From NCBI GenBank assembly GCA_951406725.2, contig OX597818.1, forward strand, positions 1 through 64,000: 64,000 nt of DNA. The letters run 5' to 3'. How positions within the stretch are numbered: position 1 is the first letter of the stretch; each line of letters opens with the position of its first letter. Positions 27,115 through 28,768 of this stretch are shown one piece after another. The position numbers and the translations under genes are program-made. The stretch comes from Octopus vulgaris (lineage: Eukaryota). A model generated the notes under the pieces. The model did no database searches. It was not told where the DNA came from and was given only the letters and a program-made list of their open reading frames with translations.

Positions 27115-28200
27115 GAGGCACCACCACCGAAACCTCCGCTACTATCAATACTATTACTTACACTACTACCACCACTATTATAAATACTATTGCTGCTACT
27201 ACCACCATCACCACTATCATAAAAACTATCACTACCACCACCACCACCAACACCACCATTTCCCTCACCACCTCCACTGTCAACGCTTTTTACTATACCC
27301 CCCCAACCACCATACTCACACGCACGCAACCACCACGCCACTACCACTATGACCATCACTACCAGAGCTTCTCCACCACCACCACAGTGACGAAACTACA
27401 GCTGCTGCTGCTAATATCGATGCCAGTGCTACTGCTGCTAATTTGGGTGTCATCGATGCTACAGTTGCAGCTGTTGTTGATGTTGGTAGCGGCGGCGGAG
27501 GCTGTGGTGGTGGTGGCGGCGGAAGCTGCGGCGGTATAGTTCTCTCCTACCATCACCATCGTCGTCGCCATCTCCCTCTCCACTACTCCCCATTACCTGT
27601 AATACTCCAAATGTTGCTATTGCTGGTGACGGTGCTGTTAATGAATATGATGATGATAATGATGTCATTTGGCGGTGTTGGTGATACTGTTTTGTTGCTG
27701 TTTTGTATTTATGTTGCCCTTGTGACAAATAAAGTAGTAGCAGCAGCAGCAGTGACTGTAGCAGTAGCAGCAACAGCAGTAGTAGTAATAGTAGTAGTAG
27801 TGGTGGTGGTGGTGTTGGTGGTGATTGACTACTTGTTGATGCTGGTTGTATTGGTGTTATTTAACCCTAGGTCAACAATGATCCTGTAGACCTTTGATCC
27901 AAAATCTTCCCACAGATTACCATCCCACTTTTTATTCAGACTATTACAAATAATCTCCAATGTGTCTTATTTAAAATCAAATCAATTCAGTGTAATTTGA
28001 GGTAGGTTTTGAAAATCAAAGGTTCTATGTAGAGGTTCCACCCTGCTCTTGTCTATGTTTTGGGTGGTGGTGGTGGTGGTGGTGGTGATGTTAATAGTGG
28101 TACTGATAGTGGTAGGGGTACTATTGGTGTTAGCAGAGGTGATAGTGTTAGGGTTAATGGTACCAAAAGAGCTATTATTACTGCCACTGCCACACTGGAT
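27115..28200. repeat. Cryptic trinucleotide low-complexity region (CAC/CTA, then GTG/GTA/GCA)
   Basis: Direct reading. Confidence 0.85.
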
Positions 28201-28235
28201 GGTTAAGTATAGGGTGTGTGTACAGCAATATATAT

Positions 28236-28767
28236 ATATTGTTATATTTCGGAATGGTCATATTGCCAGTTTAGCCAATAAAAACACACACACTATATAT
28301 TTGGTGTTATTTTGCTTCAGTGTTACTTATTTTTTACATTAATCTTAATCTTATTTCGGCCAGAGTTCTTTCATCACACTCCTGTGACCGCATCAGTGGT
28401 CCTTTGTTTTCTTCTTACTTATTTGTGTCTCTATGTAGAGGTTCCACCCTGCTCTTGTCTATGTTTTGGGAGGTGGTGGTGGTGGTGATGTTAATAGTGG
28501 TACTGATAGTACTACATAGAGACACAAATAAGTAAGAAAAAAACAAAGGACCACTAATGCGGTCACAGGAGTGTGACGAAAGAACTCTAGCCGAAATAAG
28601 ATTAAGATTAATGTAAAAAATAAATGACACTGAAGCAAAATAACACCAAATATATAGTGCGTGTGTTTTTATTGGCTAAACTGGCAAAATGACCATTCCG
28701 AAATATAACAATATCTGTTTCAACACACGACTTCACATAAAAAATCTTGCACAACAAATATTTAAAC

Positions 28768-28768
<1 letters not shown>
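28236..28768. mobile_element. PLE-type foldback (~200-nt arms, ~54-nt tail) with captured flank in the loop
   Basis: 28236-28438 is the reverse complement of 28512-28714; loop matches 28024-28110. Confidence 0.9.

Follow-up and report, generated by a model that had tools for sequence, protein, structure and literature searches.

Penelope-like elements (PLEs) are described as leaving inverted truncated copies with one-sided tails at TA targets (PMC8557442; PMC3846280), and their paired hammerhead motifs lie on opposite strands, 100-700 bp apart (PMC4209133). Self-priming has been proposed for these elements from the palindromes at inverted joints (PMC3846280), and a PLE protein, when purified, nicks the two strands and extends both of them, with reverse transcription starting at two internal sites that bound the tail (PMC11167929). 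According to the same work, the PLE steps that follow priming still await experimental demonstration, and the formation of PLE tandem and inverted structures has been named as an open question (PMC8557442).

Copying of local DNA has been described for other retroelements and for break repair. Among about 3,600 solo L1 insertions, 22 cases of templated insertion were reported (10.1101/2024.08.27.596794; also PMC11702581). At the 5' ends of ZfL2, which carry extra nucleotides (PMC4245944), and in the snap-back of R2 (PMC11371274), further synthesis is primed by the cDNA end, on flanking DNA or on the cDNA itself, ahead of closure of the 5' joint. The inserts of polymerase theta arise when aborted synthesis on a local template makes a new overlap, giving an insert that is a direct repeat (PMC7165422).

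The foldback examined here, at 28236-28768 of a 64-kb stretch of Octopus vulgaris DNA (the window), is like the inverted pLTR insertions of EN+ PLEs in having an inverted 5'-truncated copy beside a direct copy, a tail at a single end, a TA-rich target and minimal hammerhead-like motifs on opposite strands (PMC8557442; PMC3846280; PMC4209133), but its tail is of 54 nt as against the 30-40 nt described for these elements. The PLE inverted joints described in the accessible sources contain overlaps or palindromes, and Pen1_Av contains host spacers of 0.9-1.5 kb before the 3' pLTR, and none of these descriptions includes a loop copied from the immediate flank. As in the L1 cases, for which release of the cDNA and local pairing have been proposed, nearby genomic DNA of under 250 bp was copied into the insert (10.1101/2024.08.27.596794; PMC11702581), but the template of L1 typically lies within 15 bp of the site (10.1101/2024.08.27.596794) as against 125-212 nt here, and the overlap between arms is 203 nt as against a median of 22 bp in the duplications of L1 twin priming. 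The ZfL2 and R2 tracts are mostly short and stand at the outer 5' junction of a single cDNA, while the insert here stands between two inverted copies. For polymerase theta the copied tract is 3-30 bp long and its template lies no more than 50 bp from the break (PMC7165422), and the tract of 72-81 nt copied here from 125-212 nt away falls outside that definition. No description of flank-templated loops at PLE inversion joints was found in the literature searched, mostly papers readable without subscription, and this is not proof of their absence. The foldback clearly exemplifies a class of integration scar that is already known, but in a type of element for which no such description was found.

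Geometry of the foldback and source of its loop

The features of the locus are as follows, with the strand given where one applies.

28024-28110, plus strand: donor, unique host DNA that is duplicated in the loop
28111-28235: intervening host DNA, single copy within the window
28120-28123, plus strand: where the copied tract may end if a 9-nt slip occurred, giving 3 nt in common with the beginning of the right arm (post hoc)
28228-28239: left outer junction, (AT)6, of which the last 4 nt are common to the arm
28236-28438, minus strand: left arm, a copy of the 3' region of the element that lacks the tail and is antisense on the plus strand
28358-28402, minus strand: hammerhead-like motif of the left arm, putative minimal type I, core CTGATGCG, with C instead of A9
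28430-28438, plus strand: 9-nt overlap between the end of the left arm and the start of the donor, of element or host origin
28439-28511, plus strand: loop, 73 nt, consisting of a 72-nt host copy and 1 base, untemplated or slip-templated
28512-28714, plus strand: right arm, sense copy, starting at the element position where the left arm ends
28548-28592, plus strand: hammerhead-like motif of the right arm, more decayed, with core G5 and one stem I base changed
28715-28768, plus strand: tail, 54 nt, on the right arm only, probably element sequence
28769-28888: right outer junction, (TA)n microsatellite, the likely target

The two arms (28236-28438 and 28512-28714) are complementary at 195 of 203 nt (96%) without any gap, and a loop of 73 nt lies between them. 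The original prediction had proposed that the spacer with its junction (28430-28510) duplicates 28024-28110 in the same orientation, and this was borne out by an alignment with E 3e-31, in which a single base is substituted and the GGT run has one gap of 6 nt. The exact blocks that flank this run, 39 nt before and 24 nt after it, are each found exactly twice in the window, at these two places only. The predicted difference in GGT run length was also observed (8 as against 5 uninterrupted units), as were the sharing of 9 nt between arm and donor, located at 28430-28438, and the position of the donor outside the element, which was measured as 125-212 nt from the left arm. The alignment score of loop and donor was 142, while the maximum in random 2-kb windows was 33 (none of 60 reached 142). 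The insert matches unique DNA near the junction, as is characteristic of locally templated insertions. Since the loop was copied from the flank, the foldback was built at its own site, by a free 3' end able to reach DNA 200 nt away.

An alternative arrangement, in which donor and loop are the two halves of an 87-nt target-site duplication, was rejected, because the host-like segment 28111-28235 would then become insert, and another insertion would have had to land precisely where the duplicate ends.

Loop and donor differ at 1 of 81 positions and the arms at 8 of 203 (Fisher p=0.45), and the flank copy looks as old as the arms. The differences between the arms are all substitutions, seven transitions and one transversion, with no indels. 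Read errors and chimeras are expected to leave indels or identical arms, not transition-rich substitutions, and this pattern thus argues against an assembly artefact; the differences would represent germline mutation after one duplication event. The window is AT-rich and of animal-type composition, with abundant microsatellites and retroelement remnants, and a DNA similarity search of its 64 kb gave no further copy of the foldback family. Taken alone, this is a decayed repeat that shows no sign of being functional.

The 9-nt match between arm and donor (28430-28438) does not extend further. A match of this length within 1 kb of a fixed end is expected by composition at 0.5-1%, and empirically it was found at 5 of 184 arm positions, a count that includes the true end. 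The 9 nt may represent a long microhomology that chose the end or, about equally, some of them may be host sequence that the right arm acquired by folding back. At the joint between loop and right arm there is either no overlap but a single additional base or, given a 9-nt slip, an overlap of 3 nt (28121-28123); the six-base word behind the slip reading is expected within 15 nt at about 0.3%, and was noticed after the fact. As at the AT-rich or (TA)n targets of EN+ PLEs, (AT)6 is present at the left outer junction and a long (TA)n at the right, which is a weak criterion because the window contains 301 TA runs.

Hammerhead-like motifs and the one-sided tail

The hammerhead search was made with a custom descriptor, modelled on the PLE hammerhead table in the supplement of PMC8557442. 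Six matches were obtained window-wide, three of them inside foldbacks, which occupy 3.8 of the 64 kb, and each of five shuffles gave 0-1 match. A hammerhead-like motif had been predicted in the arms and is indeed present, but the register first chosen for it, with a long stem II and the outer GAAA, gave no stem I in the descriptor scans, and it is the register with the inner GAAA that folds. Within this fold of the left-arm motif, stem II (GTCAC/GTGAC) is closed by the inner GAAA, stem I has 3 contiguous base pairs (TGG/CCA) and stem III has 2 bp. A bulged base before stem II and a G-C closing pair, both listed as features of the minimal hammerheads of PLEs (PMC4209133), are also present in the left-arm motif. 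An intact core was found in neither arm, A9 being replaced by C in both and G5 changed in the right arm. Rfam gave nothing at gathering score in the window and, near the foldback, no hammerhead family even at E values as high as 10, and three 13-nt motifs of the arms gave 0 matches each in the PMC8557442 supplement.

From the strand of the hammerhead-like motifs, the inverted 5'-truncated copy adjoins the direct copy head-to-head, as in EN+ PLEs. The 257-nt fragment contains no long reading frame and no recognised coding region, and the lack of a reverse transcriptase or GIY-YIG frame is as expected of a truncated copy.

A further correction to the original prediction is that the right arm runs 54 nt (28715-28768) beyond the left, so that a short tail is present at one end only, again as in EN+ PLEs. 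A 30-codon frame over the arm end and tail gave a single match among 1.84 billion proteins, an unnamed sequence of 58 amino acids, at a borderline E of 7.9e-4. This match is colinear and ungapped over the boundary of arm and tail (6 of 11 arm codons and 13 of 17 tail codons), and no TA run follows the tail-matching part of the 58-aa sequence. Its upstream 20 residues matched the arm not above chance (34 of 300 shuffles). Searches for longer relatives of the 58-aa match, and with two antisense frames across the inner end, gave no protein matches, which are weak blanks, and no PLE protein was found with the 30-aa frame, the 58-aa match and the two antisense frames as queries. The 54-nt tail is probably element sequence, to judge from this colinearity.

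An ATG-started open frame of 27 codons (28689-28769) also crosses the arm end and tail, and no longer relative of it was found. By analogy with the pLTR and tail of Pen2a_Av (PMC3846280), this frame may be the start of the reading frame of the element.

Taken together, the hammerhead-like motifs, the geometry and the tail make the arms look, indirectly, like the 3' end of a Penelope-like element. The proposal of the original prediction that these are PLE ends stands to this extent, but neither a coding sequence nor a family match was found in its favor.

Other foldbacks and repeats in the window

A total of 17 local inverted pairs were listed in the window, of which four with gaps near or above 1 kb (dispersed repeats) were dropped to leave 13, and removal of the weak pair 34792-34953 left 12 rows, representing 11 loci, for a first comparison of loops with flanks. 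By this screen, in which the flank started past the arm boundary, a same-orientation flank copy was found at the 28236-28714 foldback only. When junction bases were included, in a second screen of the nine loops of at least 8 nt, two of the nine were found to copy local DNA in the same orientation.

The second of these is the hammerhead foldback 34177-34505, in which 17 nt at the loop end are the same as the flank at the right end. A 14-nt target word recurs at all three junctions of this foldback (left end, loop and right end), with one more occurrence in the rest of the window; the word in the loop could be a templated insert or the mark of two successive insertions at one site. The wider segment 34080-34515 is noted as another candidate case in which an inner joint contains host DNA.

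The foldback 13964-14048 belongs to the same family as 34177-34505. Its left arm, the 7-nt loop and the first 5 nt of its right arm are colinear with the antisense strand of the family, which points to a snap-back of the tail-less arm onto itself by way of 5 nt. The short arms of both foldbacks stop at the same family position. The copy at 13964-14140 carries a tail.

Two foldbacks of another single family, 2099-2510 and 50093-50538, have a common left boundary, a tail confined to the right side and loops that are alike over their first 46 nt, and this common loop start indicates that a shared loop does occur in another family. On the minus strand, the loop of these copies (2099-2551 and 50093-50583) resembles a tRNA-type Pol III head, with A and B boxes by eye, and the loop ends are complementary; ARAGORN identified no tRNA gene in the window. 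The arms contain, by eye, a decayed hammerhead-like core without a descriptor match. These copies are a candidate tRNA-headed SINE with a PLE-type 3' end.

The foldback 37624-37853 consists of 58-nt arms (37624-37681 and 37796-37853) around a 120-nt inverted copy of 37327-37446, 177 nt upstream. Each of its inner junctions has an overlap of 3 nt, and it gave no hammerhead match. No local or window-wide source was found for the 113-nt loop of 10467-11076, and no local template for the loops of 890-1103, 57040-57095, 60195-60312 and 60388-60945 (3, 0, 16 and 148 nt, respectively). The layout usual for PLEs, with a tail on one arm and TA at both ends, is found in four other foldbacks of the window. 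With snap-back, built-in inverted repeats and flank copies all represented across these loci, flank copying is one way among several of closing the joint. The original prediction had taken the flank copy as a clue to how inverted PLE ends form, and it is one such route, with two of nine loops copying local DNA, while other joints were closed by snap-back or by a built-in inverted repeat.

Several other features of the window were observed. A predicted type I hammerhead with an intact core lies at 10704 on the minus strand, in the foldback 10467-11076, and a minimal hammerhead-like match with one core change lies at 12087 on the minus strand, outside any foldback. A decayed reverse transcriptase frame, PLE-like by eye, is found at 7479-7934, with no Pfam match and no DNA similarity to the arms. 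The segments 25292-25516 and 26348-26575, separated by about 1.06 kb, form a near-identical direct repeat (87 nt at 100% and 65 nt at 97%), representing a recent duplication or an assembly duplicate.

Routes to the closed inner joint

The foldback probably represents a 5'-truncated, head-to-head insertion of a hammerhead-bearing PLE into (TA)n, in which the inner joint was bridged by a templated insertion from an intermediate with two cDNAs. The geometry, the source of the copy and the similar age of copy and arms are observed, and the two-cDNA intermediate, the order of steps, the enzyme and the timing, which could be that of integration or of later repair, are inferred. Both target strands would be nicked in the TA tract and each would prime a cDNA, the left arm being copied from the inner start site without the tail and the right arm from the outer site with the tail; two cDNAs, one with and one without a tail, are what the two start sites of the purified PLE protein predict. 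The two cDNA ends would be identical, not complementary, so that no pairing between them is possible. One end, most likely the tail-less one, would then pair with host DNA 212 nt upstream through a microhomology of 2-9 nt, be extended for 72-81 nt on the host template, and be released to re-prime, through 0-3 nt, on element DNA, which could be either its own strand or the second cDNA. The sense-strand sequence made after re-priming would pair with the other cDNA and fill-in would fix the structure, later drift giving the difference of about 4% between the arms. The polymerase may be the element reverse transcriptase or a host break-repair polymerase. Since the tract is longer and its template farther than the range of polymerase theta, we lean to reverse transcriptase or replication-type switching, a leaning that falls short of proof.

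The comparators of the window have the same architecture, which favors this origin: the short arms of 13964-14048 and 34177-34505 stop at one family position, 2099-2510 and 50093-50538 have a right-only tail, and the target word of 14 nt is present at each junction of 34177-34505. Several observations count against this two-cDNA origin. The window contains no second copy of the family and no Rfam hammerhead, no arm motif was matched in the supplement and no protein relatives were found; A9 is C in both arms, and stem I has only 3 contiguous base pairs; the outside protein match is single and borderline. That the arms end at the same base with a 9-nt match just there is also unlikely if the 9 nt are all element sequence. 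The switch of template to the flank and back, as originally predicted, is still the simplest reading and agrees with the compatible ages of copy and arms, but the 9 nt may be partly host DNA folded back, and the enzyme and timing are conjectural.

Repair after insertion is a rather unlikely alternative. A truncated copy (right arm and tail) would have been inserted first, and a later break at the fragile TA tract would have been repaired through microhomology-mediated template switching, in which the element was copied in the backward direction first and host DNA in the forward direction next. The length of the tract and its distance fit replication-type switching and exceed the 3-30 bp within 50 bp of polymerase theta (PMC7165422). 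Moreover, the foldback 37624-37853 has a templated loop without a hammerhead, so host repair alone may make such structures here. Such a break must, however, strike the exact 5' junction of the element, and its repair must recreate the usual PLE layout seen in four other foldbacks.

An origin from a single cDNA is likewise unlikely. The cDNA, primed at the right (TA)n, would have copied tail and arm, jumped to the exposed upstream host strand and copied it leftwards, and then folded back through the 9 nt to copy itself into the left arm, which would join the left (AT)n through ATAT. One cDNA suffices for this route and the shorter left arm is explained; snap-back of R2 onto its cDNA or nearby target DNA has been described (PMC11371274), and a 3-nt landing site is available at 28121-28123 if the 9-nt slip is allowed. 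On the other hand, the 9-nt complement must sit exactly at the cDNA end, for which the expectation is 0.5-3%. In another family of the window two short arms share their stop position, and a fixed second start site fits this common stop better than a random stop. Besides, it is the tail-less arm that was folded back in 13964-14048.

That the arms are not PLE at all, but a plain host inverted duplication or a MITE-like element with a chance likeness to hammerheads, is very improbable. Matches to a family, to a coding sequence and to Rfam are all absent and the core has a mismatch, as would then be expected, but the descriptor matches are rare in shuffles, the bulged base and G-C closing pair agree with the minimal hammerheads of PLEs (PMC4209133), and the outside 58-aa sequence spans arm and tail. 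A loop taken from the immediate flank is unexpected of a MITE that moved as a unit, and the spacer matches local flank only and the ends are asymmetric, at variance with MITEs and foldback DNA transposons. An artefact of assembly or library (a foldback chimera or haplotype merge) is the least credible of all: the region is rich in microsatellites and tandem or inverted PLE structures do trouble assemblies (PMC8557442), but the substitutions follow the pattern of mutation rather than of read errors, and near-identical arms without an extra tail would be expected.

Beyond this locus, the two-cDNA origin suggests a general scheme, which we consider doubtful and put forward tentatively. PLEs would integrate by two cDNAs with free ends of identical polarity, the joint closing only after an excursion in which the tail-less cDNA acquires sense-strand sequence, and capture of the flank would then be a regular event. 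The excursion could go by snap-back on itself, by a built-in inverted repeat, by the target site or by host DNA hundreds of bases away, and the window contains one candidate for each of these routes. If the scheme holds, foldback loops across the genome would preserve, like fossils, a record of how PLE joints are closed, a step of transposition still unsolved. One locus does not settle the mechanism, but at a dozen foldbacks per 64 kb very many joints are classifiable genome-wide, and such classing of PLE foldback loops could bear on the open step of PLE transposition.
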